Source: a virus
Taxonomy: Duplodnaviria; Caudoviricetes
Reading direction: 5' to 3' (one strand)
DNA length: 55,469 bases
IMG/VR virus record: IMGVR_UViG_3300002488_000008
Span: 1-55,469 of that record
Part shown: positions 15,323 through 39,604 of the stretch, piece after piece
How positions within the stretch are numbered: position 1 is the stretch's first letter
How the letters are laid out: every line of letters starts with the position of its first letter
Notes under the pieces: generated by a model
Databases searched by the model: none
What the model saw: the letters and a program-made list of their open reading frames with translations, nothing else
Told to the model about the DNA's origin: nothing
Position numbers and translations under genes: made by a program

Positions 15323-16669
15323 ATGGCTAAAAAATTAAGTACAGAATTTGATGAATTAGCCAATATTGCTAGAGAAGATGAAAAGTTGGCAGAAGAAGAA
15401 CAACGAGTTATAGATGAATTAACAGTAGATAAAAGTGATTTCTTAAAATGGCTTGATAATCAACCTCTTTCTAATCATTTTGATATAGAAAAAAAATATG
15501 CTAAAAAATTTAATACTAATTTATCTCAAGCAAAAAAGGAACTAAATATTATTGTTAAAAAATATGAAGTAGAAGGACATGATGTACCAACAGTAGTCAA
15601 ACAATTAAAAAAGTATAGAAGAACACTAAAGGGAAGTGCAAAAGTAGATATTACAAATTCGATAGACAATCTAATAAAAGCATATTCTGACCATCTTAGC
15701 ACTAGTATTGATGATATATATTGGATTAAAAAATACAAGCCAATATTAAATGATATGGTATGTAGTGAAGATAATATTATAAAATTATCTTATGTTTCTG
15801 AGGAGTCTACAAGAAGAGAGATTATTGATACTCTTTGTAAATATTGGGAAGATAAATTACATATGAGGGATATGCCATATAATTCAGATTACGCTAAATT
15901 AAATAAGTCCATGTCTGTTTCAAAAAGAGAATTCAAATCCATATTGAGAAAATATATGACAAGTACGACAACTAAAGATATTATTAAACATGAAATATTA
16001 AAGGCAGTATGTGAAAATAACGGTATTTCTTCTAGACAAATACATGAAAGATTACCGACTAGATTATTTAAAAAAACTTCACCAACCATTATTTCTAAAA
16101 TGGCTAAAAGTATGGATATAACAAATGTAAATGGTGCATTCTATAAATTAAATGATGATATTAAAAAAGATATTTATGCCTATACTGCGGCCTTCATAGA
16201 TTCAGATGGGTATATTACTATGGATAAAAATTACAATCCTAGAGTTGGTTTGATAGCCACAGGAGAAAGAGGTAAAGCATTTATGATGGAAATGCATAAA
16301 TCTCTAGGTTGTGGTAGACTACATCTTGACCAAAAATCACCACAGGCTACTAGGTCTGTTCAAAGATTAAATTTCTATTCGGGTGATGATGTGGTAAAAA
16401 TATTAACAAAGTGTAGGCCACACTTTAAAATGAAAGGGGCTAACGCAGACATATTATTGGAACTAGTAAGAATGAAGAAATCGCATAAAAAGGCAGAATG
16501 GTATGAATCTAGAAGAGAGGAATTATTTAAATTAATGAAATATGAAAACCATAAAGACCACGTAGGGTATGACTTTTCTCAGTATGGAATAGACCCAACT
16601 ACTGTTGCTAAATTTCATGAAAATTCTAAAATGTTTGAAATGGATAGACTAGAAGGGATTGTGGTTTAA
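15323..16669 (+). CDS. LAGLIDADG-domain protein with long N-terminal extension
   Basis: Single LAGLIDADG helix YTAAFIDSDGYI at about aa 287, followed by a typical LAGLIDADG core. A wHTH-like segment lies upstream. Confidence 0.85.
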   Translation: MAKKLSTEFDELANIAREDEKLAEEEQRVIDELTVDKSDFLKWLDNQPLSNHFDIEKKYAKKFNTNLSQAKKELNIIVKKYEVEGHDVPTVVKQLKKYRRTLKGSAKVDITNSIDNLIKAYSDHLSTSIDDIYWIKKYKPILNDMVCSEDNIIKLSYVSEESTRREIIDTLCKYWEDKLHMRDMPYNSDYAKLNKSMSVSKREFKSILRKYMTSTTTKDIIKHEILKAVCENNGISSRQIHERLPTRLFKKTSPTIISKMAKSMDITNVNGAFYKLNDDIKKDIYAYTAAFIDSDGYITMDKNYNPRVGLIATGERGKAFMMEMHKSLGCGRLHLDQKSPQATRSVQRLNFYSGDDVVKILTKCRPHFKMKGANADILLELVRMKKSHKKAEWYESRREELFKLMKYENHKDHVGYDFSQYGIDPTTVAKFHENSKMFEMDRLEGIVV

Positions 16670-22222: not shown

Positions 22223-24841
22223 ATGCCTCAGACAGGAATCAGTTTTGAAAAGAAAACTAATGATTTATCAAAAAGAGTTTTAGACTTTTTTGAAAGAGTT
22301 AGATATTCCTTTTTATCGGCTAAAGATGACCCTTCTGAATATGGGTCTAAGTGGAAATCATCAGTAGAAGAAATAAGAGATATGTTTGATTCTTTAGATG
22401 ACTTTTCTAAAGAATTAAAAAAATATGTAGAAGAAAAAGATGTTTTTTCCGGTGAAGCCAAAGACCCTACATCTGTTACTGCACAAAGAATATATGATAA
22501 TATAAAAGAAATGCGGTTTAAATCTAAGTCTGTATCTGACCCCTTTTCAAAAACATTAGGTGATGATGTAGTTGATAAATTGTTAGAAAAGGAACACCAT
22601 CTAATTGCTTTTTTACATTATGCTATTCGCTCACACAATAATGCTATACCTAAACAAGTTTGGATAAAAAATGATTTACCTCCCGATGAAATTACTCAAG
22701 GGTCTATGGGTTTAGACTTAGAAATAGATGATATTGAATTGTATATCAAAGAACATTATGGGGAAAACAAAACAACAGATAGATTATCTAGCAAAATTAA
22801 AGGGGCATTAAAAAGATTAGAAGATATGTTTATTGAAAAATATGGGGAAGATAATTGGGAAGATTTAGAAGAAGTAGATATTCCTACTTTAAAGAAGGCA
22901 GAAACTAAAAGTGAAGAGGAAAAGTCTGCTATAGATTTTCTTATCCCAAACAAACCAATGTTTAGAATTTTTGAAATAGATGATTTAAAAGAAATTAAAG
23001 GATTAAGTGGAGAGTTTGTTGTTCAAGAAAAATATGATGGAATGAGAATTCAGATTCATAAAGTAGATAATAATATAAAAATTTATTCATATAATAAAAT
23101 AGATATTACTGATAAATGTCCTGAACAAGTAGAAGAAATAAAAAAGAAACATTTTGGTAGTTGTATATTAGATGCAGAATTAATGTTATTTTTGGACGAT
23201 GAACCACTACACAGAGCGGAAACAATATCTTATGTTTTTAAATTAAAAGATGAAAATAAGAAAGGAGTATTGAAGGCTCATGTTTTTGATATCATGCAAC
23301 ATGAAGGTAAATCTGTTATGGAAGAAGCATTAAGAGAAAGAATTAATATTTTATTGTATCAATATTCACAACATTCTTCTGAAATGTTGGCATTCCCGTC
23401 TAAAAAAGATACACGTATGGCTGATTCAATAAAAGAGGTTTTAGAATATTCTAAAGATATCATGAAACTTCCTGCATCTGAGGGAGTAGTAATAAAAGAT
23501 ATGGAGTCAACATATTATCGTGGAGTAGCACAAAATCCAAAATGGATTAAGTGGAAAAAGTTTGTAGACTTAGATGTAATTGTATTAAAAGATAGAAAAA
23601 CTAAAAGTGGTTTACATTCTTATACTATGGGAATTGGGCCAGTTCCCGCTTCTGTTGTTAGAGAGTATGAAACAGTTGAGTTTGAAGATAAGGAATATCT
23701 AGAAGTAGGTAAAGCATTAAACACTAAAACCAATGTAGAAGTTGGAAAAGTAGTAAGAGTAAAAGTAGATGAAGTAAAAAAGAAAGGTAAGTCCTTTAGT
23801 CTATATTCTGCTAAGGTGATAGAAGTTCCTGAAGTTTTAGTTTCTGATACATTTGAGACATTGGAACACTTAGCATCTAAAACTAAAAAATCTTTAACTG
23901 ATGCTTTAGATTTCTTAGGGGATAATGTATTAAGAACACCTTATAAAATTATGAGTGGAGTAGGAGAGAGTCAAAAGAAAGTTAAGAAAGCATATTATGT
24001 TACAGATGAGATACACGGTACTGCTGAAATTATACTAAAAGAAGATTTAGATGGATTTACTATTTATGGTTTTGAGGGAGATACATTAATGCAAAAAAAT
24101 GCACTTCATAATATAGATATATGGAAAGAACAACTTACTGAAATCATAAAAACTAAAAGGTCAACATTAAGAATTGCAATTAAAAATGAAATTTTAGAAT
24201 CAGGTAGACCCAAAGTAACATTTGAAAAGATAGCAGAATTTGTTAGAGATAACTATCCCGAAACATTTGAAGATGTATTTGATAATAAAGAAGATAAATT
24301 AATGAGTTGGATGAAAACAGAAGGTGATGTAAGTTTTGTTTATCATCACCCGAACAAATTTAGTGTGCAAAGTGATGAACTTACAAAAGATATAGAAGTA
24401 TTACAAAAAGAAGACAGAAAGGGTAAGTTTGTAATTAAACGTAGAGAAGATGAAAATATTGATTTTATTATAGAATATAAAGATAAAAGAAATGCTTGGA
24501 CAATAGAAATTGAAGACTCCGAAGATATTTTTAATTTATTTGGTAAGTCCGGTAAATATCCTGCTATTGTTGCAAAAAATCTAGATAGCGGTAAAACTTT
24601 AGATGAAGGAGAGTTACTTCTTGGAGTACAAAAACAAGGTTATCATGAATATAAATTAAATGGGGATAAATTTGATACTAGAATTCATATAAGAGTTTTG
24701 CCAGTAAATGAAAAAAATGTATGGCTTGCATGGACAGGTAAAAAACAAGAAATGTTACCATTAGATGAGGATGAAAAATTGTGGGATATTACAGAAGATA
24801 AGTATGCAAATTTAGAGTTTCCACAAAAAAATAGCACGTAA
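22223..24841 (+). CDS. Multidomain ATP-dependent DNA ligase-like protein
   Basis: Motif I EKYDGMR (K270), III ILDAEL, IIIa VFDIM, IV EGVVIK and V WIKWK, then an OB-like region. Extra N- and C-terminal domains. Confidence 0.88.
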   Translation: MPQTGISFEKKTNDLSKRVLDFFERVRYSFLSAKDDPSEYGSKWKSSVEEIRDMFDSLDDFSKELKKYVEEKDVFSGEAKDPTSVTAQRIYDNIKEMRFKSKSVSDPFSKTLGDDVVDKLLEKEHHLIAFLHYAIRSHNNAIPKQVWIKNDLPPDEITQGSMGLDLEIDDIELYIKEHYGENKTTDRLSSKIKGALKRLEDMFIEKYGEDNWEDLEEVDIPTLKKAETKSEEEKSAIDFLIPNKPMFRIFEIDDLKEIKGLSGEFVVQEKYDGMRIQIHKVDNNIKIYSYNKIDITDKCPEQVEEIKKKHFGSCILDAELMLFLDDEPLHRAETISYVFKLKDENKKGVLKAHVFDIMQHEGKSVMEEALRERINILLYQYSQHSSEMLAFPSKKDTRMADSIKEVLEYSKDIMKLPASEGVVIKDMESTYYRGVAQNPKWIKWKKFVDLDVIVLKDRKTKSGLHSYTMGIGPVPASVVREYETVEFEDKEYLEVGKALNTKTNVEVGKVVRVKVDEVKKKGKSFSLYSAKVIEVPEVLVSDTFETLEHLASKTKKSLTDALDFLGDNVLRTPYKIMSGVGESQKKVKKAYYVTDEIHGTAEIILKEDLDGFTIYGFEGDTLMQKNALHNIDIWKEQLTEIIKTKRSTLRIAIKNEILESGRPKVTFEKIAEFVRDNYPETFEDVFDNKEDKLMSWMKTEGDVSFVYHHPNKFSVQSDELTKDIEVLQKEDRKGKFVIKRREDENIDFIIEYKDKRNAWTIEIEDSEDIFNLFGKSGKYPAIVAKNLDSGKTLDEGELLLGVQKQGYHEYKLNGDKFDTRIHIRVLPVNEKNVWLAWTGKKQEMLPLDEDEKLWDITEDKYANLEFPQKNST

Positions 24842-24872: not shown

Positions 24873-26087
24873 GTGCAAGCGATGCAGATGTTAAGAAAAG
24901 AGGATAACACCTCTGGTCATTTTAGCATTTTAAAGTCTGATGATTTAGTTATTGGAGGTTATGCTTCTATTGAAATAGTAGATAAACAAAACGACTTAAT
25001 TACATTAGAAGCATTAAATGACGCAGTTGCAAAATATATGAGTGAAAAGAAATACAGAAATGTAATGTCTAATCATTCTAATGTTCAAGTTGGAGAAGTA
25101 ATTGAAAACTACAGAGATAAAAATGGAATGCTTCATAAAACAGAAGTAGATAATGTTGGTTTTTATGTTGTTATTAAATTAAGAGATGACATAGAAAAAG
25201 CAAAAGAAATTTCAAGAGGAATTAGAAAAGGAACACTACGCTCCTTTAGTATTGGTGGACAAGCAATATCAAAGCGTAGTAAAAAATCAGATGAGTTCGG
25301 TCAATACAATGAAATTGACAAGTTAGAGTTACATGAGGTAACTATATGTGAAAAGGGAATTAATCCCGAAGCGAGATTCGACATTTTAAAACAAGATGTT
25401 GGAGGTAATAAAATGAGTGATAAACTGGAAAAAGCACTTGAGGAGTTGAACGGCTTGATGAAACAAGTTAGTGATATTCACAAGGAAGAAGAAAAAGATG
25501 CCGATATGAAGAACGCAGGTGACATGAGTTACATGGATTCAGAAGAAGAAAAAATGAACTATGAAAAGACTGATAGCGAAGAAGAAATGAAAGCCGATGA
25601 TGAGATGGACGATGATGAAGCAAAAGCATTAGACATTGACAATACTCATTCAGAAGCAGGAGAAGAAGTAGTAAGTGGTGGAAATCCAACTGCAACCCCT
25701 GCACCGCTTAAAGTTTCTAAAGGATTAGAAGATGCTGATTTCAGTACTTTGAATCTAAGTCAAGAAAATGTAGAGAAGGCTTACGAGGCTTTCAAAGCAG
25801 AACGTCTTGAAAAACTCGCATACGATTCCCTAAGCAAGCAATTTGAAACAAGACTTGCTGAAGAATTAGAAGTTAAGAAAGCAATGGCAGAGAGAAACGA
25901 ATATGATGCTATCTCTGAAGTTGCGGCTCTTAAAGAAGAATTTGCGGAACTACGCAAATCACTATCTGAAACAGAAGTACGCAAAGCACAAGAAGTTGCC
26001 TTGCCCGAAGGATTCCCAACATCAATGGATGCAATAGCAGACATGTCTTGGGGAGATATACACACATTAGTTGGAAGGAGAGATTAA
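24873..26087 (+). CDS. Prohead maturation protease (HK97-type) fused to scaffold domain
   Basis: IGGYAS..VDKQND, H (SNHS), catalytic SFSIGG and LHEVTICEKGINP, followed by an acidic coiled-coil C-terminal half. Confidence 0.92.
   Translation: MQAMQMLRKEDNTSGHFSILKSDDLVIGGYASIEIVDKQNDLITLEALNDAVAKYMSEKKYRNVMSNHSNVQVGEVIENYRDKNGMLHKTEVDNVGFYVVIKLRDDIEKAKEISRGIRKGTLRSFSIGGQAISKRSKKSDEFGQYNEIDKLELHEVTICEKGINPEARFDILKQDVGGNKMSDKLEKALEELNGLMKQVSDIHKEEEKDADMKNAGDMSYMDSEEEKMNYEKTDSEEEMKADDEMDDDEAKALDIDNTHSEAGEEVVSGGNPTATPAPLKVSKGLEDADFSTLNLSQENVEKAYEAFKAERLEKLAYDSLSKQFETRLAEELEVKKAMAERNEYDAISEVAALKEEFAELRKSLSETEVRKAQEVALPEGFPTSMDAIADMSWGDIHTLVGRRD
25413..26087 (+). CDS. Nested in-frame scaffolding protein (224 aa) from an internal start
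   Basis: Strong SD GGAGGT (25401-25406), then in-frame ATG 25413 right after the protease domain. Confidence 0.65.
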   Translation: MSDKLEKALEELNGLMKQVSDIHKEEEKDADMKNAGDMSYMDSEEEKMNYEKTDSEEEMKADDEMDDDEAKALDIDNTHSEAGEEVVSGGNPTATPAPLKVSKGLEDADFSTLNLSQENVEKAYEAFKAERLEKLAYDSLSKQFETRLAEELEVKKAMAERNEYDAISEVAALKEEFAELRKSLSETEVRKAQEVALPEGFPTSMDAIADMSWGDIHTLVGRRD

Positions 26088-26089
26088 GA

Positions 26090-27505
26090 ATGACATACAT
26101 AAATACAATAAGAGATTTGGAAGCAAGCACATACGGAATGGCCGGAGCAAGCGGTAACGCCCTACTAAAGAGTAGTGGTGTTATTGGTGGTTTTGGTAAT
26201 GTTGTAGGCGGAGCGGCACAAGGCCACGATGCGGCAACTAACTTAGCCGGTGGAGCGGCAGGTTTAGGAGACTTGTATAACGTTCTTTACGGACAAAAAG
26301 TTTGGTCAATGTTAAATCAAGAAGTTAACGTTTTGTCAATGATTGCTAAAAGGCCATATACATCAAGTGGTTGGAGAATACTAAAATCCCGTCCTGCTGG
26401 TGGTTCAGATGCGGCTTTCGGAATAGGAAATACTGCGGTTGACTCAAATGTTACTGATTTATCTACCCCTAGAGCAGACCAAATTGGTGGTGTAGAAGAA
26501 AACGCAACATTAGGTGGAGCAAATGGATTCAAAGCATTGTCTCCTGAATACACTAAACTATTTACAAGCCCTAAAACAATAGCACATCTGTTCGAGTTCT
26601 CTGAACTTGGAATGGAAATGGCCGCTATTGATGATGGTGTTGGCGATATACGTGCAATTGTTAGAGAAGACATGGGTAAGCATCACGCTGAAGTTCAAAG
26701 TAAGATGTTACTAATGCCTTTAGAAAGATATGATGATGCAACTGCAACTAACATAACAAGAAATTATACTTCTTTAATGAAGATAGTTTCTTCTAACAAA
26801 GAAATTGCGGCTATGGCTAATGCTGATATGACGGCTATGGGTGCGGCTGATGGCAGTTCTAACGTAACTGATTTAGTAGACGTTACTAAATTATTTGGTG
26901 CTAATAGAGCAGACAATAATGGTGTAACTGTAAGTGGTTCAACATATACAGGTGTTAACGATTTCATGAGTGCAGAAGTTGATTTTGGTACAAATTATAC
27001 AGGTGGCCCTAGAGTATTAACTCTAACAATATTGAATGATATGCTACGAAGAATACGTGTTAACGGTGGAAATCCAAAAGTTATTTTAACAGGATACGAT
27101 ACTATACAACATATATCTGACTTACTACAAAGCCAAGAGAGATTTATGGATAGGAAAGAAATTGTTCCTACACATAATGGTGTTCGTGGAGTTAAAGGTT
27201 CAGAAGTTGGTTTCAGAGTTGCAACATACTATGACATACCAATTATCCCATCAAAGGATATGCCTAAAACACACAAAGCAAGTCTAAACCCTGCTAACCC
27301 ATTGAGTGATATATTAATTCTAGATACTGACCATCTATGGTTAGCGGTTATGAAGCCTACACAATACTTCGAGGACGGAATTTCAAATGGAAACCCATTC
27401 GGTGTTGGTAAACTTGGTAATCAAGGAATGTACCGCACTATGGGAGAAACATGTTGTTCCTTCTTTAAAGGTCAAGGTAAGATTACTAACTTGAAGAGTG
27501 CTTAG
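26090..27505 (+). CDS. Major capsid protein (HK97 fold)
   Basis: Follows the protease. 471 aa from ATG 26090 (SD ggaaggag). Motifs YG.KVW..LN.E.N, PKTIAH.FE.SE, PKVILTG and IPIIPSKDMP; low-K/E, highly expressed codon style. Confidence 0.9.
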   Translation: MTYINTIRDLEASTYGMAGASGNALLKSSGVIGGFGNVVGGAAQGHDAATNLAGGAAGLGDLYNVLYGQKVWSMLNQEVNVLSMIAKRPYTSSGWRILKSRPAGGSDAAFGIGNTAVDSNVTDLSTPRADQIGGVEENATLGGANGFKALSPEYTKLFTSPKTIAHLFEFSELGMEMAAIDDGVGDIRAIVREDMGKHHAEVQSKMLLMPLERYDDATATNITRNYTSLMKIVSSNKEIAAMANADMTAMGAADGSSNVTDLVDVTKLFGANRADNNGVTVSGSTYTGVNDFMSAEVDFGTNYTGGPRVLTLTILNDMLRRIRVNGGNPKVILTGYDTIQHISDLLQSQERFMDRKEIVPTHNGVRGVKGSEVGFRVATYYDIPIIPSKDMPKTHKASLNPANPLSDILILDTDHLWLAVMKPTQYFEDGISNGNPFGVGKLGNQGMYRTMGETCCSFFKGQGKITNLKSA

Positions 27506-27955: not shown

Positions 27956-28342
27956 ATGGTAAAAGTACAACTAAAAAAACAAGGAAGACCGTATAAATTT
28001 GTAGACAAAGGAATAGAATATTTTATTTCTCATGAAGGTATAGAACCTAAGTTACCTACTAATCTTGCCCTTAGTCTAATAGGTAATCAAGAATTAGAGT
28101 TTACCTTTGAAGCAAAAGACAAGAGTGCAATTCAAGATTTAAATTCTAGTTATTTACAAACTTATTGTCAAATATATAATACATCTGATACAAAGATGTT
28201 GTTAGAAGTATTATTTCCTAAGAAAACTACTACACAAAAAGTAAAGAAAGTTGTAGAAGAAGTATTAGAAACTCCTGCTAAGAAAACACCTGCTAAGAAG
28301 GCGGCTAAAAAAACACCTGCTAAGAAGGAGGTGAAGAAGTAA
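27956..28342 (+). CDS. Hypothetical protein with C-terminal PAKK repeats
   Basis: TPAKKTPAKKAAKKTPAKK tail; ATG 27956 follows ggagtga. Confidence 0.75.
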   Translation: MVKVQLKKQGRPYKFVDKGIEYFISHEGIEPKLPTNLALSLIGNQELEFTFEAKDKSAIQDLNSSYLQTYCQIYNTSDTKMLLEVLFPKKTTTQKVKKVVEEVLETPAKKTPAKKAAKKTPAKKEVKK

Positions 28343-28656
28343 TGGCTATAACATGTGCAACAAGTGGAGTTAAAACTGCTGATGCAGTAGTTTCTGCTTC
28401 TAGGTGTAAACTTATGAGTATTCATGTTACTGTTACTAGTAATCATGGAACTGCGGCATTGAGTACACTAAAACTTTATGATAATGCAAGTGCCGCAAGT
28501 GGAACAGAGATTGCTAGAATTAATTTATTAGCATCTAGTACTTCTCCACAAAATATTGAATTTGATATGCATGGAGTATTATGTGCTAATGGGTTATATG
28601 CCGATGTAACGGTAGGTAGTAATTGCACTGTAGCGTATAGCGTGGAGTTTGCGTAA
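28342..28656 (+). CDS. Small beta-rich putative virion structural protein
   Basis: 104 aa, A/S/T-rich; LYDNASAASGT...G.....GLY pattern typical of viral decoration or spike proteins. Confidence 0.55.
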   Translation: MAITCATSGVKTADAVVSASRCKLMSIHVTVTSNHGTAALSTLKLYDNASAASGTEIARINLLASSTSPQNIEFDMHGVLCANGLYADVTVGSNCTVAYSVEFA

Positions 28657-28657
28657 T

Positions 28658-29074
28658 ATGCCTAGCATAGATACAGATACAAGACTAATAATGACAATAC
28701 TATTCGTAGGGTCAGTTAGCGGTGTTAATGTTTATTTTTACACTCAATATGGTGTAGACTTCCCATATGGAGGTTATGCTCATGGAGTATTATTTGGCAT
28801 TATAACCATTGGTGCTATTATGATTATGAAAGCGGCCTTTGATTTAATGCTTCATGATATGATAGAAGATAGATTACTTCAACGTAATATTGATAATTAT
28901 TGGTTTAGAAAGGCTAGAGATGAAGAAAACCGTAAGAGAGTTAGAGAGTCTATGAGAAACTTTCAACAAAACTTTGCTCCCGTATATGGAGATACAAATT
29001 TACCTACTTTTGGTCAAACTAATAAAGCAGAAGAACAAACAGTTTCACCCGCATTCTTAACAGAACTAAGGTAG
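28658..29074 (+). CDS. Membrane protein (2 predicted TM helices)
   Basis: Hydrophobic LIMTILFVGSVSGVNVYFY and GVLFGIITIGAIMIM, followed by a charged tail. Confidence 0.75.
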   Translation: MPSIDTDTRLIMTILFVGSVSGVNVYFYTQYGVDFPYGGYAHGVLFGIITIGAIMIMKAAFDLMLHDMIEDRLLQRNIDNYWFRKARDEENRKRVRESMRNFQQNFAPVYGDTNLPTFGQTNKAEEQTVSPAFLTELR

Positions 29075-29090
29075 ATAGGAGGTCATAAAT

Positions 29091-29315
29091 ATGGTAGGAG
29101 AAATCCTAATGGGCTTTGATGAGTCTGCTATGGCTTATGATTTACAAAGAGCCCATTCAGCAGACATATGGTTTATTCGTGCAAGATTTTGGATATGGGG
29201 AATTGTTGCATCTATAGTATCTTTTGGATTAGGACATTTAATTGCACATCTAGGATTTAATATGTATTCTTGGTTGTGGGGAGGTATGGTAGACTTTTGG
29301 AATCATCTATGGTGA
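29091..29315 (+). CDS. Small Trp-rich membrane protein
   Basis: FWIWGIVASIVSFGLGHLIAHLGF TM segment plus amphipathic WLWGGMVDFWNHLW; SD aggagg. Confidence 0.75.
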   Translation: MVGEILMGFDESAMAYDLQRAHSADIWFIRARFWIWGIVASIVSFGLGHLIAHLGFNMYSWLWGGMVDFWNHLW

Positions 29316-29319
29316 ATAT

Positions 29320-29991
29320 ATGTCAGTAATGGCCGGATTTGCTATATTATTAGTAGAGGGTATGAATAAGTTATATCAAAGACTACACTCTATTCCATTT
29401 GGTGTATATGGTGCGAGCAAAGCAGGGAAGACAACTTTACATCATCAATTAAGAACTAGAGGAGAAGTACCAACAATAGTAGAAAGAACTGTTGGAACAC
29501 ATAAAGCAACTAGAAAATATGTTAAGTTAGATGGAGATGCTCATACAGTAAAAACTGCTGATATAGGGGGAGAAACAGTTTTTTGGGGAGAATGGGTAGA
29601 AGACATGAAAAACAGACATGTAAAATATATAATTTTCATGATAGATGATAGACATATGGATAAACATTTTGATATTGAACAACAGTTATGTTGGACATTT
29701 TTAGTAGATACAATTTGTGCTAACTCTTGGACAGTAAATGGTAAAAATAGAAAAAAGAAAAATCATGATTATCCAATTGCAGTAGGAATATGGGCTAATA
29801 AATATGATTTGTGGAAAGACAAATATGACCATAAAGGTTCAATAGATAAGCATCCTATTTTTGATTCTTTTCAAGTAGGTATGCAAAAGTTAAATGATAA
29901 AGGAATCCCATGCTTTAAATATATAGTGAGTGCGAAGTCCGATTCAGAAATGGTGTATAGAGGAATATTAACAATGATAAAAGATTACTAG
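29320..29991 (+). CDS. Ras-superfamily (Arf-like) small GTPase
   Basis: G1 GASKAGKT, G2 RTVG, G3 DIGG, G4 NKYD and G5 SAK; N-terminal hydrophobic/amphipathic helix. Confidence 0.88.
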   Translation: MSVMAGFAILLVEGMNKLYQRLHSIPFGVYGASKAGKTTLHHQLRTRGEVPTIVERTVGTHKATRKYVKLDGDAHTVKTADIGGETVFWGEWVEDMKNRHVKYIIFMIDDRHMDKHFDIEQQLCWTFLVDTICANSWTVNGKNRKKKNHDYPIAVGIWANKYDLWKDKYDHKGSIDKHPIFDSFQVGMQKLNDKGIPCFKYIVSAKSDSEMVYRGILTMIKDY

Positions 29992-30000
29992 GTGAAGAAA

Positions 30001-30672
30001 ATGACGATGAATTTTAACCCCCCAAATTTAATAGGAGCAACAACGACAAACGTGAGTAACCCTTTCTTAGATAGGTTTACTCAAGCAAGAGCCGCAGGTG
30101 CGGTAATGCTATATGAGTATAAAAGTGTAAAACCAAAAAAACAACTCAAGGAAATAATAAAAGTATTATTACCGGAAAATAAAACTTTTTTAAAAATTCC
30201 ATATAAATTCAAATATAACATGAAAGATAGATGTGTTGTATGTGGAACACAAAAAGTTTGGGAATCTGCTGATAGTATGCGACCCCCATTACCATTACAT
30301 AAAGTAAGAAAGGGTTATCCTATGAGAGGAACTTATTGTGATAAACATGCTTCTATTCATAGACAATATGAAATGTTAGAACAACAAATACTAGCAGAAG
30401 AACATGGTTTATCTTATAGTGCTTATATTCCTAAAATGCCTAACTTAAACCCTTTAGCAAGTGGCCCACTTACTAGTTTAAAACAGACAGATATACAATC
30501 TTTATCTGCATTAGGTTGGACAATAAAACCCCCAACGGCAGGACTAGAAAGTAAAGAAGAAGAACTATTTAGAATCTTAATAGAAAGTAATGCAAATAAT
30601 GAAAGAGTCAAAACTTTATTAACTGAAGGCGTGAAGATACAAGTGCAAGAGCAGGTGGGAGTTGAGGAATAA
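30001..30672 (+). CDS. Hypothetical Zn-finger-like protein
   Basis: CVVC...C..H; C-terminal helix; SD aggtga before ATG 30001. Confidence 0.75.
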   Translation: MTMNFNPPNLIGATTTNVSNPFLDRFTQARAAGAVMLYEYKSVKPKKQLKEIIKVLLPENKTFLKIPYKFKYNMKDRCVVCGTQKVWESADSMRPPLPLHKVRKGYPMRGTYCDKHASIHRQYEMLEQQILAEEHGLSYSAYIPKMPNLNPLASGPLTSLKQTDIQSLSALGWTIKPPTAGLESKEEELFRILIESNANNERVKTLLTEGVKIQVQEQVGVEE

Positions 30673-31364
30673 TGGGATTATTTGGTACAAGTAATGGACA
30701 AATATTATCATCTATGAATGCTAATAATCAAACACAATTTAAAACTATGAATAATTTATTAACTCTACAAGAGAATCATGTAGAAGATTTTTTTCAATAT
30801 CATGGAGAAGCGTTTTTAGCGGCTTTGGATAAATTAATAGAAGATGCAGTAGAAAGAAGTGTTAGTAAAGTTATAGGTAATTTAAAATTTAATACTCAAA
30901 GTAGTGGAGAAATAGTCTTACACCCCGATGCAGTTGCTACACTAAATACTATTACAGAAGAAAATATTACATTAGATTTACAAACTCTTTTGGCTACTGC
31001 GGTTAATAGTGAAGTTATAATGCAAAGAAGAATGGCTAAACAACAATATCTTGAGTCACAAGGATTTTCTAGTCCTGCACAACAGGCTATGCCAACTCAA
31101 CCAGTAAATCCAATGGGTATGAATCCTCAAAATATACAAGGTAATAATATGGGAATGGGTATGAACAATGCAATAAATCAACAAGCAATGGCTATGAATA
31201 ATGGTAGTGGATATCCCGTACCACCTGCCGGATATGACCAAATGAATAATGCATATTGGATAGACCCTAATACAGGTCAGATGACATATACACCTCCTAC
31301 TAGTGGTTTAGGATTAGGTGCGGCCATAACTAAAGGCGTTGCTTGGGCTAAATGGTTGGCTTAA
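30672..31364 (+). CDS. Q/N/M/G-rich protein with C-terminal amphipathic helix
   Basis: Low-complexity PMGMNPQNIQGNNMGMGMNN region; ends in GLGLGAAITKGVAWAKWLA. Confidence 0.75.
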   Translation: MGLFGTSNGQILSSMNANNQTQFKTMNNLLTLQENHVEDFFQYHGEAFLAALDKLIEDAVERSVSKVIGNLKFNTQSSGEIVLHPDAVATLNTITEENITLDLQTLLATAVNSEVIMQRRMAKQQYLESQGFSSPAQQAMPTQPVNPMGMNPQNIQGNNMGMGMNNAINQQAMAMNNGSGYPVPPAGYDQMNNAYWIDPNTGQMTYTPPTSGLGLGAAITKGVAWAKWLA

Positions 31365-31378
31365 GCGAGGGTTATAGA

Positions 31379-33886
31379 ATGATAAGTAAACAGGATAAAC
31401 TAATAATTCATAGTAACGTTATAAGTGATACCATAGGAAGTAGTAGAACACTTACTCCTACCATCATATTTACTCCATCAGATAAAACAAAAATTATGCC
31501 CGAATTAATAAAAGATAATCTTTTATTTAGATATATGTGTTTTTATATGTTTTCTAATACTCTTATTGCTGATGCTAATGTAAACAGAGTAGAACAAATA
31601 TTACCTAAAATTTTACAAATAAATAAAAGAGACATAGAGTTATTTTTAGAAGAGGCTAAAAATATAGATAGTAAAACTAGTAGTGTAGATGTAGAATCTA
31701 TAGAAAGAACTGTTGCAGGATTTAGTAATGAAGAGTATAATGAATATAAAATAGCATTTCTAAATCAATTAAAAAAAATAAATTTAGAATCCTTTTTAAC
31801 AATTATGATTGGTGAAGGTGACAATCAATTATCAAAAAAATCTTTAAATGATATTTTTAAAAAAACATCTTTTTCGGATTTTTTAAAATTACTGAAAGAT
31901 AATCCTATTGATGATAGTATTACTTTTATGGATTTAGATAAAAATACAAAACTTAGAGACTATTTATCCGGTCAAAAGGGAAGATATGGAAAACAAGAAA
32001 AGAAAACTACACTAAGAGATGCACCTGAATTTTTTTCATCAACAAGCATAAACCCCAAGAATTACAAAGAGTATATAGAATATGTAAAGAAGTTATCAGA
32101 AGATAAAGAGTTTAGAGATACAATTGAGCAAGCGTTTCAAGATATGGCTATAGACCAAGATATATTAAATGACCATTTAGATGTATTAGGTAAATTAGAA
32201 ACAGGTTCTCCACTTTTATTTGATAATATAATGAAACATATTACAGTTAAAACTAACGCTAGTAGTAGTAAAGAGGGAGAAGTCATATTATCTGAAAAAG
32301 TAATTCAATTTAATCAAACTGCATATTTAAGAGAAGTGTTTTTAAATTTTGGTTTGGGAGATATTGAAAAGGAAAATTTTGAATTAGTTTCTGATTTAAA
32401 AATAAAAAAACAAGATGATGCAAAAACTATATTTGCGGGAATAAAATCTACAGATGCAGGTAAAGATAAAAGAACACCTTTAATGTTTTTATCTCCAAAG
32501 TTTAAAACAAAAAAGACTAAATGGGGTGATTTTGATGTAGAAGAAGATACTAGAATTATAGAAAATATTGAACTAGTAGGAAATAAAAATACAAAAGAAT
32601 TTGCCTATGATGATAATGGACTATCAGCCTTAGCATCTGAATTAAATGATATTAAAGATTCATATACAAATATAAAACTCAAAGAAACAATTGAAAATTT
32701 ATTATTTAAAAATCTAAATATGAATATTCCTTTAACAAAATTAATTATTGACACAATAACTCCTACTGACGGTAAAATAGTTTGTGGGGTATTTTCAATG
32801 CTTTTAGGTAAAAATGATAAAATTTTTAAAATGGCTGAAGAGGTTCAAGGATTAGAAACTTATTTAGCAGATAAATTTAATAAAGATTCAATTTATATGA
32901 AAGAATCACAATTAGAAGACGAAAGTGCAGAACTGGAAGATAAATATAGTGAATTTGAAACTATGATGAATACAAATGATGCTTCAAAATTAATGGGTAA
33001 AGTTGAAAAAATTGATTTGAAGAAGAATTTTTTACCAAATAGTCCTCGAATAAGAAAACCTGAAGAAGAGGAAGAAGAGGAAGAAGAGGAAGAAGAGGAA
33101 GAGGAAACTACTGAAGAGGAAGAGGAAGAGGAAGAGGAAGAAGAAGAACCTAAAGAGTTAGAATATGAATTAGTAAAAGACGCATATGTGAAATTAAATT
33201 TTACTGAGATTTTAATTAAATTGTTTCAAAAACTTGTACCAATACCTACAATTGTAGGGGGTACAACTCAATTTGAAGAATTTTTTGAAGAACAAACAAA
33301 AAAAGTAGTAAGAGGACTTAGCCCCGATGAAGAAAATACAGATATAAAAACGGCTATAGAAAATTATATACGTGTTTTAGACCAAATAAATTCACTTTCA
33401 GAAAAAGAAAATGACAGGTTAGTACAATTTAAAAATTTACTAGATAATATAAAATCAAAAATAAGTACAAAAAAAGGAGATTTTAGTGCAGGAAACGAAA
33501 GTAAGGCACGTTTATTTTTTAATCTATATAAGAACAAAACAGAAACTTCATTTACAGGTACAAAAGATAAAGCAGAAGTAGATATAGATTTCAAAACATT
33601 AGCACGAACGGCTAGAAAAGAAAAGGGAATAGGGGCAACAGAAATTCCAATTATAGAATATAAAGATATTAAATTCAAAAAAGATGGAACAGTTAATGCT
33701 AAGAACTTTTCTTTTAAGATGGGATATAGGAAAAAAACTGCTACAGAAGAAGCAAGACAATCTAAAGGCGGAAGGGCGGTTGTTGATAATGATAGGAAAG
33801 GTGCTAAAGATAAAGTTGATAAAAACATAAATAGATTTTTAAATACTTTAGTTAGGAACTTTAAAAACATAGAAGGGTTGGTATAA
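31379..33886 (+). CDS. Large K/E-rich hypothetical protein with poly-Glu tract
   Basis: About 835 aa from ATG 31379 (SD gaggg). Confidence 0.8.
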   Translation: MISKQDKLIIHSNVISDTIGSSRTLTPTIIFTPSDKTKIMPELIKDNLLFRYMCFYMFSNTLIADANVNRVEQILPKILQINKRDIELFLEEAKNIDSKTSSVDVESIERTVAGFSNEEYNEYKIAFLNQLKKINLESFLTIMIGEGDNQLSKKSLNDIFKKTSFSDFLKLLKDNPIDDSITFMDLDKNTKLRDYLSGQKGRYGKQEKKTTLRDAPEFFSSTSINPKNYKEYIEYVKKLSEDKEFRDTIEQAFQDMAIDQDILNDHLDVLGKLETGSPLLFDNIMKHITVKTNASSSKEGEVILSEKVIQFNQTAYLREVFLNFGLGDIEKENFELVSDLKIKKQDDAKTIFAGIKSTDAGKDKRTPLMFLSPKFKTKKTKWGDFDVEEDTRIIENIELVGNKNTKEFAYDDNGLSALASELNDIKDSYTNIKLKETIENLLFKNLNMNIPLTKLIIDTITPTDGKIVCGVFSMLLGKNDKIFKMAEEVQGLETYLADKFNKDSIYMKESQLEDESAELEDKYSEFETMMNTNDASKLMGKVEKIDLKKNFLPNSPRIRKPEEEEEEEEEEEEEEETTEEEEEEEEEEEEPKELEYELVKDAYVKLNFTEILIKLFQKLVPIPTIVGGTTQFEEFFEEQTKKVVRGLSPDEENTDIKTAIENYIRVLDQINSLSEKENDRLVQFKNLLDNIKSKISTKKGDFSAGNESKARLFFNLYKNKTETSFTGTKDKAEVDIDFKTLARTARKEKGIGATEIPIIEYKDIKFKKDGTVNAKNFSFKMGYRKKTATEEARQSKGGRAVVDNDRKGAKDKVDKNINRFLNTLVRNFKNIEGLV
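33062..33148 (+). repeat. GAA/GAG microsatellite encoding E15-TT-E12
   Basis: (GAAGAAGAG)4 and (GAAGAG)n runs. Confidence 0.9.
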
Positions 33887-35714: not shown

Positions 35715-37553
35715 ATGGTTAGTAATGAAGCATTCGTAGGTGCAGGACAATCGGTAACATTTGTACCGGAAACTAATATTTATTTGAAAGATTGTGTTAA
35801 TAACAATACTGCTATTATTAGTTCTTGGGATGGTGATGTAGTTCTTGTTCCTAAATTATATGTTGGTTGTGTGGCTAAAGTAGAAAAGGAAGAAGACAGT
35901 GGTGTTACGCCTTTAGTTGGTTATTTTACTATAAAGGATAACACTCAAACTACTTTAACATTTAATGAAGTTATACAGAGTGAAGATTTGGCTAATTTAG
36001 ATGTTACAATTTTATCATATGGTTCACCAACTCCTGCATTAGTCACTTCAGATGACAATACTGCTGATGGTGGTGCAATTACATTGGGTACTTCTTCTAT
36101 TACTATAACTGATGATGGAAGTGGTGGTACTGCTAACCAAGTACGGGCTAACGTAGAATTAACTGGAAATGGCATGGGTACAGGTGCAGAGGCTACTGTT
36201 ACTGTTCATGCATCTAATGGTGGTATTACTAGTATAGACGTTACTAAAGGTGGAGATGGTTATGTCGTAGGAGAAACTCTAACATTAGCAGTGGGTAATG
36301 CTACTGGTTCTTCTATAACAGGACTTCCTACAGATGCAGTATTAACAATTGCAAGTAATAAAGTTGAGACTGATGGAGTAACTGTATTAGGAGACAGTTG
36401 GTTAGGATTAGTTAATTCTTTTTCTCCACCTAATGTAGAAGTAACTCTTAATCAAATGAATTTAGCACTGGGTAATACTCGCAACTTTACTCATCAATAT
36501 AAGGGGGCTGAAACTGTAAGTGGTGCTTCTATGGATATTAACATGAATAATGGTTCATGGTTGTATTATGCTTTAGGGGGAATATCAGTTGAAGAAGCCG
36601 ATAGTAATGCATTAGCGACTTTAGAAACTGCAATAAATAGTAGTGCTACTGAATTAACATATATTAATAGAGGTACTGGTGAAATAGTTCGGACAATAAA
36701 AGGTGGTAATTCTAGTTTAACTTCTGTATCTTGTCCTCCAGTCAAAAGTCCTGCGAACTTTAGACAAAGAAATGGTAAAATTTTAACTTATACATTTACA
36801 GAATTAAATGGAGATTCACTTCCTTCTTTCGCTATAGATATGTCGCACGAAAAAACTTCTTCCGGTGGAAAGATAGATAGTTTATCTCCTACAGAAAATA
36901 TGTGGTCTAAGTTAGCAACAGGTTGTCAAGTAAATACTCTTACTATGAATTTTAATGAAGGAGAAGAATTAAAATGTAGTTTAGATTTAGTAAGTAAAAC
37001 TTTATTTGATAACCCATCAGGTTATTTTCCTGCAAGAAATATTGATACTACAAGTAACTTACATAATTTTAGTTCTACAAAGGAAGATAATTATCCATTT
37101 ATGTATTCTGATGGTGGAATTAAAATATTTGGACAGACATTTGCAAGAATAAAATCCGGTTCTCTTGCAATAGCAAATAACTTAACACCTCATAGATTCA
37201 TTGGCAAATATGACCGTAAAAGTGTTAGCCATCATAGTCCTGCTCAAAGAACATATGATTTAAATTTCACAATGTTAATTACTGATACTCAAATATGGGA
37301 TGAATTAAGAGGTCAAGATGAATTTGACCCAACTGGAGCATCTAATGAAGGTATAATTGAGTTATCATTTTCTAAAGGTTCAGGAGAAACATTATCTAAC
37401 ATTAATTTACAATTTAAAAATTATATTATAGATAGTGTTAATATCCCGTTCCCTGATGATAAGTCTGCATTAGAAGTAGAAGTTACTATGAAAGCAAGAA
37501 CATTACATAGTTGTACTTATTCCGGTAAGTGGGAAATCATAAATACAAAATAG
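35715..37553 (+). CDS. Major tail (tube) protein with inserted domains
   Basis: LPSFAI, GCQVNTLTMNF..GE.L, G.L.I.NNL and RTYDLNFT tube motifs; precedes the chaperone and tape measure genes. Confidence 0.75.
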   Translation: MVSNEAFVGAGQSVTFVPETNIYLKDCVNNNTAIISSWDGDVVLVPKLYVGCVAKVEKEEDSGVTPLVGYFTIKDNTQTTLTFNEVIQSEDLANLDVTILSYGSPTPALVTSDDNTADGGAITLGTSSITITDDGSGGTANQVRANVELTGNGMGTGAEATVTVHASNGGITSIDVTKGGDGYVVGETLTLAVGNATGSSITGLPTDAVLTIASNKVETDGVTVLGDSWLGLVNSFSPPNVEVTLNQMNLALGNTRNFTHQYKGAETVSGASMDINMNNGSWLYYALGGISVEEADSNALATLETAINSSATELTYINRGTGEIVRTIKGGNSSLTSVSCPPVKSPANFRQRNGKILTYTFTELNGDSLPSFAIDMSHEKTSSGGKIDSLSPTENMWSKLATGCQVNTLTMNFNEGEELKCSLDLVSKTLFDNPSGYFPARNIDTTSNLHNFSSTKEDNYPFMYSDGGIKIFGQTFARIKSGSLAIANNLTPHRFIGKYDRKSVSHHSPAQRTYDLNFTMLITDTQIWDELRGQDEFDPTGASNEGIIELSFSKGSGETLSNINLQFKNYIIDSVNIPFPDDKSALEVEVTMKARTLHSCTYSGKWEIINTK

Positions 37554-37642
37554 GAGGATATTCGATAAAGTAGGATATTCTAAAAAAGTAAATTCCATCA
37601 ACATTGTTTGTTTGTTGATTTTAAAAGTAGGTGGAAAAGAAA

Positions 37643-38008
37643 ATGAGTGAAATAGAAAATGATAAGAGTAGGTTGTTCGCAACCGTAGACCAAACGATGC
37701 ATGAAATAAAAGTCGCAGAAGATAGTGATAAAATAATAAAAGTGTGGGTTAAAGAACCTACATGGTTACAAGTAGAAACTGCTTTATCTTCTGTAATGGA
37801 CGTAGATTCTCAAACACAAGAGATGACTTTAAATTTAACTAAAATGTATAAATTTATGATAAAGGAATTTATTGGAAAAACAGAACCTTCCCTATCTCCT
37901 ATAGAACTATTAAGATTGAGTCCTTACATTGGGGCTCAACTCAAAGAAGTTCTTCCTAATCCATTTATGGATATAACGGGGGCTGATACGGGAAAAGCAC
38001 AGAAATAA
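37643..38008 (+). CDS. Tail assembly chaperone (gpG-like)
   Basis: Lies between tube and tape measure; 121 aa; slippery site near the 3' end. Confidence 0.75.
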   Translation: MSEIENDKSRLFATVDQTMHEIKVAEDSDKIIKVWVKEPTWLQVETALSSVMDVDSQTQEMTLNLTKMYKFMIKEFIGKTEPSLSPIELLRLSPYIGAQLKEVLPNPFMDITGADTGKAQK

Positions 38009-38217
38009 GAAAAGCATTAACAGGAAGAGAAGTAGATGCTAAATTAGCATTTACTATCTTATTATATTCTTATTGTAAAATATTTAATATAAACCCTAAT
38101 GAAGCAAGACACACAAAGTTGTCTCTTATGTTAGAATTAACACAGATTCACGCTGTAGCAGAATCACTAAAAGCAGAAAAAGTAGAAAAAGAAGTAGGAG
38201 GTATAAAGAATGTCTGA
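37990..38217 (+). CDS. -1 frameshift extension of the tail chaperone (gpGT-like, about 191 aa fusion)
   Basis: In-phase G GGA AAA at 37990-37996. The -1 frame has no early start and stays open (STEIRKALTGREVDAKL...FNINPNEA...KNV*) up to the TMP start. Confidence 0.8.
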   Translation, partial: GKSTEIRKALTGREVDAKLAFTILLYSYCKIFNINPNEARHTKLSLMLELTQIHAVAESLKAEKVEKEVGGIKNV

Positions 38218-39604
38218 TGATTATGAAGCACTAACAGAATTCGGTAAAGCCATACAAACTTTAAGCGAAAGTTCGGATAGTTTAGCGGCATCTTTTGGAG
38301 AACTTTCAGATAAAAGTAAAGCATGGACAATTGCTAGTAGAATATTATCGGGTTCAGGACTATGGAAATTACAAAACTATGTTAGAGCCGTAGGTAATAC
38401 CATTAAAATGTATAATGATAATCAAAATGAAGCGGCTATGGCTACTGTTAAAGCATTTGAACATAATCAAAAATTAACAAAAAGTTATGCTGAAATGGAA
38501 AAGCAGATTCGACAGGTAGAGAAAGAAACCGGAAGTTATTATGACATGATGGTCAGAACTCATGGTGAAGAAAGGGCAAGAACAGAAGGATTAAAAGACT
38601 TATTTAGAATTAAAAATCAAATTAGTGAGAAATTGGTTGGAAAGGCTAAAGGTGGAATTGGTTTAGCATTTGAAAGTGCAGGAGCATATTTTAGAGAAGG
38701 TAGAACAGAAATTGACCCTAGAACAGGAAAAAAAGAAAAAGTAAGAAATGCATTTACAGGACAAGTAGGTGGATATTTCGGAAAAGTAATGGGTAGTAAA
38801 GTTGCAGGGGCGAATAAATTTGCCACTGCCTTACTCAAAGGCGACCCTACCGGAAAAACAGAAAAAGCAAGAAGAAGATTATTACTAAAATATAGTTCAA
38901 AATATTTCAAAAAGATGTCTCCGGTTGCAGGAATATTGGCTAAAATACCTTCAGCATTATATAAATTTATAAATATAGGATTAACATTTTTTATACAAGG
39001 GCTAATGTATGTTACTTTAATAGGTCTTGGAATAATAGTCTTAGTTAAAATATTAAAAGCGGCAAATATATTTGGATTGTTTAAAGAACTAGGAGAAGGT
39101 TTTCGTATAGTACATCATTTACTTGAAGGATTTAAAAAGATATTTGGTGGAATATTCCTTATGCTTAAAGCAGTATTTAAAGGAAATTTTAAAATGTTTT
39201 TTATTGGATTAGTCACAGTTCTAAAGGGTGTAGGACAAGTTCTATTGGGAGTATTCCTTGCAGGAATTGCGGCTACCATTGCAATAATTGGGGGATTACT
39301 CTCTGCACTTGGTAAAGCAATATATAAGGGTATAACAGGTAGAGCAACAGGTGGAATAGTAAGAGAAAATTTGACTCTAGTTGGAGAAAGAGGGCCGGAA
39401 CTAGTTTCACTACCAAATGGAGCAAGGGTACATACTAATGCTGAAAGTAGAAGAATGGTAACTGGAAGTAGTAATGTTATCAATGTTAATGTTACTGGAA
39501 GAGTAGGTGCATCCGATACAGAGATTAGAGATATAGCCAATAAAGTTGCAAGGGAAATTAATTTGCGAATGAACAGAACAGGTAGTGCGGCAGGTAGATT
39601 TTAA
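38210..39604 (+). CDS. Tape measure protein (short)
   Basis: Follows the chaperone. G/A/K-rich helices, hydrophobic segments and C-terminal RATGGIV...VGERGPELV.LP.GA.V motif. Confidence 0.8.
   Translation: MSDDYEALTEFGKAIQTLSESSDSLAASFGELSDKSKAWTIASRILSGSGLWKLQNYVRAVGNTIKMYNDNQNEAAMATVKAFEHNQKLTKSYAEMEKQIRQVEKETGSYYDMMVRTHGEERARTEGLKDLFRIKNQISEKLVGKAKGGIGLAFESAGAYFREGRTEIDPRTGKKEKVRNAFTGQVGGYFGKVMGSKVAGANKFATALLKGDPTGKTEKARRRLLLKYSSKYFKKMSPVAGILAKIPSALYKFINIGLTFFIQGLMYVTLIGLGIIVLVKILKAANIFGLFKELGEGFRIVHHLLEGFKKIFGGIFLMLKAVFKGNFKMFFIGLVTVLKGVGQVLLGVFLAGIAATIAIIGGLLSALGKAIYKGITGRATGGIVRENLTLVGERGPELVSLPNGARVHTNAESRRMVTGSSNVINVNVTGRVGASDTEIRDIANKVAREINLRMNRTGSAAGRF

Follow-up and report, generated by a model that had tools for sequence, protein, structure and literature searches.

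A cassette of five genes in the genome of a virus of the Caudoviricetes (Duplodnaviria) is probably a virus-specific unit built around an Arf/Sar-like GTPase, which would serve as a GTP-switched machine at the cytoplasmic membrane of the host. The cassette occupies positions 28,658 to 31,364 of IMG/VR record IMGVR_UViG_3300002488_000008, of which all 55,469 nucleotides (nt) were analyzed and are referred to as the “window.” Its genes, designated A to E, encode in this order a protein with two transmembrane (TM) segments, a Trp-rich peptide with one TM segment, a small GTPase, a Cys/His protein, and a Q/N/M-rich protein. The five genes very likely act as one functional unit, and the place of this action is likely the membrane. 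Egress or lysis as the purpose of the cassette is a tentative proposal, possible but with the chances somewhat against it.

The cassette is composed of five open reading frames (ORFs) on the plus strand, which are arranged head to tail and separated by −13 to +16 nt. Gene A extends from a TTG at position 28649 or an ATG at position 28658 to position 29074 and encodes a membrane protein of 141 or 138 amino acids (aa), respectively. It is followed by gene B for a single-pass membrane peptide (29091 to 29315, 74 aa), gene C for the small GTPase (29320 to 29991, 223 aa), gene D for the Cys/His protein (29992 to 30672, 226 aa when starting from a GTG, or from an ATG at 30001), and gene E for the Q/N/M-rich protein (30672 to 31364, 230 aa). 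In D, the Met residue encoded by ATG 30001 (M4) was invariant in all 27 aligned orthologues, which makes this ATG a likelier start than GTG 29992. The ratio of nonsynonymous to synonymous substitution rates (dN/dS), calculated with four orthologues per gene, was between 0.00 and 0.21 for the five genes, with values of 0.02 to 0.11 for A, 0.09 to 0.21 for B, and 0.00 to 0.13 for E. This indicates strong purifying selection, so that none of the five is a chance ORF. A previous interpretation made from the letters of the DNA alone, the “sequence-only reading,” had described a tightly packed block with a 2-TM protein, a Trp-rich TM peptide, a GTPase, and a Zn-finger/helical protein, and these assignments agree with the hydropathy peaks, G motifs, and Cys/His residues given below.

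That reading had also proposed the co-occurrence of the genes in relatives as a test, and this co-occurrence was clearly found, which supports a module. Group 1, the virus group of the window, comprised 80 loci obtained from 125 confirmed matches, with GTPases 75 to 99% identical. Genes A to E were all present, with order and strand unchanged, in 70 of 70 loci that spanned the block, the other ten being cut by contig ends; A was present in 79 and B in all 80 of the loci. No gene of the region was as well conserved as C, which had a median identity of 81% compared to 70% for the capsid protein and surpassed this protein in identity at 75 of 76 group-1 loci. Three more groups were reached from full-length matches among the 82 proteins that the C profile retrieved at an E value of ≤0.001 from 1.84 billion representative proteins. 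Such a small number of matches indicates that C stands almost alone in sequence space and that ordinary Arf, Ras, and Rab proteins are outside the reach of its profile.

In the 80 loci of group 2, the GTPase was about 32% identical to C of the window. It was preceded by a 2-TM protein of 165 to 186 aa with a basic coil and by a peptide of about 80 aa with one TM segment and Trp residues, followed by a Cys-containing protein of 294 to 357 aa and a Q/N/M-rich protein of about 200 aa starting with MG[LF]FG, and a small 2-TM protein usually closed the block. Hidden Markov models (HMMs) made within this group detected the four partner families together with the GTPase in 76 of 80 loci. A cruder test based on ORF lengths yielded 57 of 68, and the 11 loci missed all contained the four families according to the HMMs. 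The same five-gene layout was present in the 4 loci of group 3, directly after a thermosome gene (Cpn60_TCP1, E value of 5.5e-133), and in the 2 inspected of the 11 metagenome loci of group 4, where large unannotated ORFs precede the cassette. In group 1, the cassette follows the capsid gene and precedes tail genes, and in group 2, it follows a gene for about 2,200 to 2,360 aa and precedes homologues of a helix-turn-helix (HTH) protein and of the large terminase (TerL) of the window. When the 46 proteins of the window were compared with the group-2 loci by tblastn, 4 matched, namely, the HTH protein, TerL, the GTPase, and a small ORF in 3 loci. The internal order of the cassette is thus kept while its surroundings change, which is strong evidence of a joint function, and its recurrence in three more divergent groups with other flanks indicates that it moves as a unit.

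The correspondence between the groups was evaluated with hhalign, and the between-group matrix was diagonal. The probabilities were 99.7 to 100% for C; 96.6% (group 1 versus 2), 95.3% (1 versus 3), and 100% (2 versus 3) for D; and 93.0%, 96.3%, and 26.8% for E in the same comparisons. Pairs off the diagonal reached at most 3.4%, with the exception of one pair at 23.2% over 12 columns. Protein A scored 97.3% between groups 2 and 3, 18.5% (E value of 1.3e-3) between groups 1 and 3, and 3.8% between groups 1 and 2, its match being always at the top of its row. The position of B is occupied in groups 2 to 4 by ORFs of 69 to 82 aa with a TM segment and 3 to 5 Trp residues, which gave 62.9% between groups 2 and 3 and weak matches to group 1 (E values of 0.0086 and 0.073). 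With these weak profile matches, homology of A and B to their group-1 counterparts is not established, while position, size, and architecture agree.

Further small proteins surround the cassette in the other groups. A small 2-TM protein of 77 to 107 aa is encoded after the E-like gene in groups 2 and 4 (loci L115, 10172 to 10429; L096, 4752 to 4991; and L177, 9221 to 9532), and additional small proteins with hydrophobic N- or C-terminal segments are encoded downstream in groups 3 and 4. Group 4 also has an additional protein of 256 to 260 aa with a long Asp/Glu-rich tail, located between the B-like peptide and the GTPase (L168, 6229 to 6999; L177, 6217 to 6999). A larger gene set directed at the envelope, which is missing in group 1, may include the cassette.

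The central protein, C, possesses a complete set of G motifs, consisting of G31-x4-GKT, the switch-I residue T57, D81-IGG-E85, N160-KYD, and S204-AK. The residues G36, K37, D81, G84, N160, and K161 were invariant in 41 sequences of the family. All Pfam scores were below the cutoff, with 22.5 bits for SRPRB (cutoff, 25; E value of 8e-5), 20.8 bits for MMR_HSR1, and 20.0 bits for Arf (cutoff, 22.3), and the NCBIfam model small_GTP reached 19.8 bits at a cutoff of 42.5. Because these scores are below the curated family thresholds, C was not filed as a member of the Arf family. Against the Protein Data Bank (PDB), the group-1 profile had a single match, 8oun (E value of 0.005), aligned from the N-terminal helix through switch II. 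The profile of all groups, containing 41 sequences, matched 8oun with an E value of 1.7e-11, followed by Arl8, 8oum, Arl3, Arf1, Arl1, Arl5, and Sar1. Forty-four of the 60 best PDB profile matches of the family were Arf, Arl, Sar, or ArfR proteins, with 8oun as the best true match, and the remaining rows contained concatenated RecA (P-loop only), Rab33, G-alpha, EhRabX3, Der, and others. The structure 8OUN is that of full-length GerdArfR1-GDP, an Asgard Arf-related GTPase (bioRxiv 10.1101/2024.02.28.582541).

The AlphaFold2 (AF2) model of C showed a small-GTPase fold with a helix at residues 2 to 22, at a predicted local distance difference test score (pLDDT) of 68.5 and a predicted template modeling score of 0.68, and Foldseek aligned the model to G-alpha, Rab, Ras, and Rho with template modeling scores of 0.40 to 0.57. 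The HMM alignment pairs the N-terminal helix with that of 8oun, and its amphipathic moment in C was 0.41, with 0.33 as the median and 0.52 as the 90th percentile of the background. Of 44 family members, 43 had a hydrophobic core in the stretch of 26 to 50 residues that precedes the P-loop, and 7 reached a TM-like N-terminal hydropathy (KD19 of ≥1.74), long enough for a true membrane helix. With the Arf family, C shares a Ras-like G domain with the motifs G1 to G5, an N-terminal helix of about 30 residues ahead of the P-loop, a DxGG motif continued by Q, H, or E, and a Trp residue eight positions after the second Gly of this motif, which is kept across the C family. In the family as a whole, the position behind DxGG (G3+1) is taken by Q, E, H, or D, in line with Arf and Sar, and in some members by A. 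It is Glu85 in C of the window, where Arf has the catalytic Gln, but Gln in the group-1 orthologues and group 2, His in group 3, and Asp or Ala in the others. Further differences from Arf are the scores below the Pfam Arf, SRPRB, and NCBIfam small_GTP cutoffs, an insert at about residues 134 to 152, a conserved HPIF motif, and the encoding by a virus of a non-Asgard archaeon. We conclude from these profiles and motifs that C should work like a membrane GTPase of the Arf/Sar/SR-beta type. The membrane GTPase switch envisaged in the sequence-only reading fits the Arf/Sar-like profiles, the hydrophobic N-terminal helix, and the two membrane neighbors.

The identification of C as a GTPase is by itself not new, since the automatic JGI annotation already names a “GTPase SAR1 family protein” for 4 of 120 listed homologues. 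No match of C was found in the INPHARED phages by tblastn. A scan of the GTDB species genomes for exact peptide patterns, which is weak evidence of absence, revealed no host homologue of C. It gave two contigs, L162 and L163 (29 kb and 12 kb, with 74% and 62% identity, respectively), in one metagenome-assembled genome labeled as Maricaulis, and these are probably magrovirus contigs mis-binned in an alphaproteobacterial genome. The distant relatives P0139 and P0185 yielded no viral loci, and P0130 was found in none of the viral contigs and in 11 loci of metagenome contigs, those of group 4.

A and B, encoded upstream of the GTPase, are the sole small proteins with a TM-like hydropathy among the 46 ORFs of the window; besides them, just the tape measure and one giant ORF exceeded the threshold. 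Protein A displays two hydropathy peaks with conserved columns (KD19 of 1.67 at residues 13 to 31 and 2.08 at residues 46 to 64), which would form an N-terminal hairpin of two hydrophobic segments, followed by a basic helical C-terminal tail that is probably cytoplasmic. Protein B has a single peak (KD19 of 1.77 at residues 33 to 51) and contains 8 Trp residues in 74 aa. Its N-terminal 32 residues are nearly invariant, with full invariance from residue 9 to 33, and its C-terminal tail is Trp-rich. The positive-inside rule would place the two termini of A and the conserved N terminus of B on the cytoplasmic side, the presumed location of C, D, and E. No Pfam, PHROG, or NCBIfam family was found for A. 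Judged by hydropathy, A with two and B with one TM segment appear holin-like in size and topology.

Downstream of C, protein D is composed of a basic helix (KPKKQLKEIIKVL), a pair of Cys/His knuckles (C81-x2-C84 and C116-x2-H119) that would form a metal site, a long helix, and a disordered acidic tail. Its AF2 model had a pLDDT of 65.6, with values of about 77 to 87 in the core from residue 41 to 145, which contains the basic helix, two beta-hairpins bearing the Cys/His ligands, and the long helix. Foldseek gave 0 matches at an E value of ≤0.001 for this model, and the best VIA-wide match had a Z score of 4.2 and concerned helical hairpins; with a model of moderate confidence, this would not prove a new fold. 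For D, 691 relatives were found at an E value of ≤0.001. The best 120 listed of these, on contigs of up to about 107 kb, were unnamed or “hypothetical” and without a Pfam domain, and a Pfam search of 45 members of the D family found no family in more than 2 of them.

Protein E starts with a conserved MGLFGTSN, continues with a helical core of about 90 residues and a Q/N/M/G-rich stretch at about residues 133 to 195, and contains a conserved PP-Y/W-rich segment ending with AWAKWLA. The low-complexity region is in the C-terminal half of the protein in group 1 and in the N-terminal half in groups 2 to 4, and the AWAKWLA tail is confined to the virus group of the window. Whereas the Q/N/M-rich stretch of the sequence-only reading was recovered, its amphipathic C-terminal helix was not, with moments of 0.22 to 0.32 at a background median of 0.30. 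No PDB, Pfam, or PHROG relative of E was found. Comparison of D and E with the PDB by sequence and by profile, using narrow and broad alignments, yielded nothing credible, and their best matches, a designed ankyrin (E value of 0.54) and a designed kelch repeat with all stretches insignificant, were rejected. The ESM Atlas contained no usable match for either protein. By these searches, A, B, D, and E are virus-only orphans without a known fold or family. A complex prediction for C and D, performed without controls, resulted in a score of 0.00 and speaks neither for nor against binding.

These features can be combined into a possible mechanism, for which we infer every interaction, the timing, and the output. 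A, as a membrane hairpin with a basic cytoplasmic tail, and B, with its invariant N terminus in the cytoplasm and its Trp-rich tail outside, would together mark a site in the membrane. C may be recruited to this A/B site, and its GTP-bound state would be held on the bilayer through the hydrophobic N-terminal helix as in Arf, Sar1, or SR-beta. GTP-bound C could then engage D, with its basic helix and Cys/His knuckle, and E, with its helical core and low-complexity region, as effector and regulator. Late co-expression is assumed from the position of the cassette in a plus-strand block of structural genes. The most likely output would be a timed, late weakening or opening of the membrane, allowing tailed virions to leave a host without peptidoglycan.

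The cassette was compared with several known systems. COPII initiation uses the membrane-bound guanine nucleotide exchange factor (GEF) Sec12, the GTPase Sar1, the Zn-finger-containing GTPase-activating protein (GAP) Sec23, and the Pro-rich Sec31. The cassette likewise combines a membrane protein with a Sar-like GTPase that carries an N-terminal helix, a protein with a Cys cluster, and a protein of low complexity, and the group-3 GTPase has DIGGH where Sar1 has DLGGH. No similarity in sequence or fold to any COPII partner was found, and this is an analogy only. Holins carry no defining sequence signature. With holin-endolysin-spanin cassettes, genes A to E share small 2-TM and 1-TM proteins encoded together in a late block of a tailed virus, but they lack a muralytic or any other enzyme domain. 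In its place they contain a GTPase and two orphan proteins that are soluble, and peptidoglycan is absent from the presumed host. By the features that can be tested, the cassette does not belong to the holin-endolysin type. No domain of a cell wall- or envelope-degrading enzyme was detected in A to E with Pfam, PHROG, and NCBIfam or in the other scanned ORFs of the window. Holin, endolysin, and spanin families had no match among the 46 ORFs, most of which were scanned in one library only. The absence of recognizable lysis genes, as stated in the sequence-only reading, holds only for the 59% of the genome that the record represents.

Several observations weigh against a GTP-switched membrane machine. 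The membrane segments were assigned by hydropathy alone, the amphipathic moment of the N-terminal helix of C (0.41) is middling, and a membrane phenotype was shown by no experiment or prediction. No lytic enzyme, pore-former, coat fold, or GAP or GEF domain was found in any of the five proteins. The roles of anchor, GEF/GAP, coat, and pore, which the sequence-only reading had distributed among the neighbors of C, received no direct support from these searches, and neither did lysis, budding, or a membrane-bound assembly site as functions. In D, the second Cys is an Asp in much of groups 2 and 3, and the second Cys/His pair is absent in group 4. With ligands that vary and half of the site gone in group 4, the putative metal site of D is probably structural and not catalytic. 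The basic helix and the Cys/His site of D could equally bind nucleic acid. With a completeness of about 59%, the record could also miss an ordinary lysis gene in the unseen part of the genome. Finally, the group-1 cassette occupies the usual position of head-tail joining genes, and a morphogenetic role also fits.

Such a role in morphogenesis or in the virion would mean that the cassette provides a membrane platform for head or tail assembly or for DNA packaging, or packaged ejection or channel proteins, with the GTPase as an assembly checkpoint. The cassette is within the structural block on the same strand, between the capsid gene and the genes for tail tube, chaperone, and tape measure in group 1, directly upstream of homologues of the HTH and TerL packaging genes in group 2, and directly after the thermosome gene in group 3, and the conservation of the GTPase above that of the capsid protein is expected of a core virion or assembly function. 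The position relative to the head, tail, and packaging genes shifts, however, between the groups, an unusual behavior for genes of head-tail joining. A PHROG structural family was matched by none of the five proteins, tailed virions have no membrane, and the entry channel of siphovirus-type tails normally comes from the tape measure, which is encoded here at 38210 to 39604. A morphogenetic function is unlikely. Quite improbable is also a take-over of the host envelope, in which an SR-beta/Arf-like GTPase and its membrane partners would re-route the targeting or secretion of host membrane proteins or block superinfection through an altered cell surface. It would explain why the best Pfam match of C is SRPRB, why some distant members of the family have TM-like N-terminal segments as in SR-beta, and why further small membrane or signal peptide-like proteins follow the cassette in groups 2 to 4. 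The SRPRB score is, on the other hand, under the family cutoff, no SRX/longin-like or SRP/Sec-related partner appeared in any search, and take-over genes are usually variable, while C is the most conserved gene of the region.

The nearest described logic is that of ArvA/ArvB/ArvC (OapA/B/C) of Haloferax volcanii and other archaea, an operon with a small GTPase and a Zn-ribbon protein that is reported to deform the membrane and to be required for vesicle formation (PMC10927574). Both systems contain an Arf-like GTPase with an N-terminal helix and, just downstream, a Cys-rich metal-binding protein, and ArvA resembles C also in its weak assignment to MMR_HSR1/Arf in Pfam. A viral counterpart of this operon would drive or hijack extracellular vesicles as decoys, for spread, or for release inside vesicles, and not serve lysis. 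OapB (PF09846) was not found in a six-frame search of the window at an E value of ≤0.01, with a positive control in 2 of 14 genomes, nor was OapC (PF09845), with a positive control in 3 of 14 genomes, and OapC was detected in none of the 45 members of the D family at an E value of ≤0.1. Since OapB and OapC went undetected although the controls were positive, the cassette is not a member of ArvABC and its assignment to this operon was rejected. It also contains two membrane proteins and a low-complexity protein in addition and is viral instead of cellular. An Arv-like vesicle function is very unlikely. As a last alternative, A to E could be unrelated neighbors packed by genome economy and have no joint function. 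In favor of this are the lack of a demonstrated interaction and of a recognizable function for four of the five genes, but an order kept in four groups down to a GTPase identity of about 30%, with different flanks and with just 4 of 46 window proteins matching the group-2 loci, makes a chance neighborhood extremely improbable.

If an action of the cassette in virus release is considered, it meets a gap in the literature. PMC10791045 describes the egress machinery of tailed viruses from archaea as “completely uncharacterized,” and PMC11706807 proposes holin-type egress for only the non-magrovirus Poseidoniales viruses. No description of a small-GTPase switch cassette in an archaeal virus was found in the full texts searched. 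Magroviruses and a GTPase were not found together, a search for “magrovirus” and “GTP” leading just to a mention of GTP cyclohydrolase, and the main texts of PMC5434244 and PMC11706807 contain no “GTP,” “Arf,” or “Ras” outside a reference, although their supplements may list the gene. With its conservation above the capsid protein and its maintenance through rearrangements in four groups, the cassette is a concrete and clonable candidate for the missing egress function. That it is indeed the long-sought egress machine of archaeal tailed viruses, with an Arf/Sar-like switch, two membrane anchors, and two orphan effectors making a GTP-gated breach of the membrane that replaces the holin-endolysin logic of bacteriophages in hosts without peptidoglycan, is doubtful on present evidence. 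Whatever its role, the cassette adds Arf-like GTPases with their own set of partners outside the Asgard/eukaryote lineage, and these viral proteins bear on the evolution of GTPase-driven membrane remodeling. A bolder extension would be that viruses of Poseidoniales harbor a deep-branching lineage of Arf-like GTPases outside the Asgard archaea.

The identity of the virus was deduced from the remaining genes of the window. The record is linear and represents a fragment of a virus that is estimated to be 59% complete. Every long ORF is on the plus strand, the G+C content is 28 to 39%, and close relatives were present on contigs from marine viruses with lengths of up to 101,546 bases. Family matches in the scan of the window ORFs identified TerL (13876 to 15312), the portal (16669 to 18336), the SU10-type major capsid protein (26048 to 27505, listed start TTG), the tail tube (35715 to 37553), the tail assembly chaperone (37631 to 38008), and the tape measure (38210 to 39604). 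An HTH protein is encoded at 7390 to 8046, and homologues of it are those found downstream of the group-2 cassette. The sequence-only reading had placed the cassette between capsid and neck genes; the capsid gene is indeed upstream, but only tail tube, chaperone, and tape measure were identified downstream and no neck genes. An 872-aa protein (22223 to 24841) contains an ATP-dependent DNA ligase domain at residues 261 to 445 (E value of 1.4e-27). The window thus contains tailed-virus morphogenetic genes and an ATP-dependent DNA ligase inside the structural module, as in magrovirus genomes, for which marine contigs of about 90 to 100 kb are a further trait, and a replication module is absent from its sequence. 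A ligase at this position is described as a notable trait of magrovirus groups A and B (PMC5434244). The window was read as a tailed virus of the magrovirus type infecting marine Poseidoniales archaea, with the host assignment taken from the literature.

Some of these genes have additional features. About 260 N-terminal and 430 C-terminal residues of the ligase protein are without a family match. The S78 prohead protease (24873 to 26087) has its S78 domain at residues 26 to 175, and the C-terminal half of the protein is long, acidic, and coiled, as for a fused scaffold. The protease gene reaches 40 nt into the capsid gene as listed from its TTG, and the true capsid start may for this reason be further downstream. 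Two giant ORFs without a Pfam match, one of 2319 aa (43258 to 50217) and one of more than 1633 aa that runs off the end of the window (50570 to 55468), presumably encode tail fibers or adhesins, and the gene upstream of the group-2 cassette, with its approximately 2,200 to 2,360 aa, is of similar size.

The immediate neighbors of the cassette were also inspected. Upstream, the 104-aa gene g104 (28342 to 28656) matched phrog_28102 of unknown function (E value of 1.4e-4); its stop codon ends two bases before the ATG of A, and it accompanies the cassette in 78 of 80 group-1 loci and not in groups 2 to 4. Contigs from 3 studies, in 3 runs that were filed as RNA, span parts of g104, A, and B (28446 to 29296) with at least 90% identity, but DNA was possibly present in these libraries. 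Contigs from RNA libraries came from 8 runs with shares of 0.06 to 0.17 of the words, left C and D uncovered, and, as contigs cannot show transcription, are neither for nor against expression of the cassette. Directly after the cassette, an 844-aa gene (31352 to 33886) overlaps E by 13 nt and carries a long poly-Glu run. Nothing informative matched this gene or the 358-aa gene behind it. The 844-aa gene is hypervariable and was detected by tblastn in 9 of 80 otherwise syntenic group-1 relatives.

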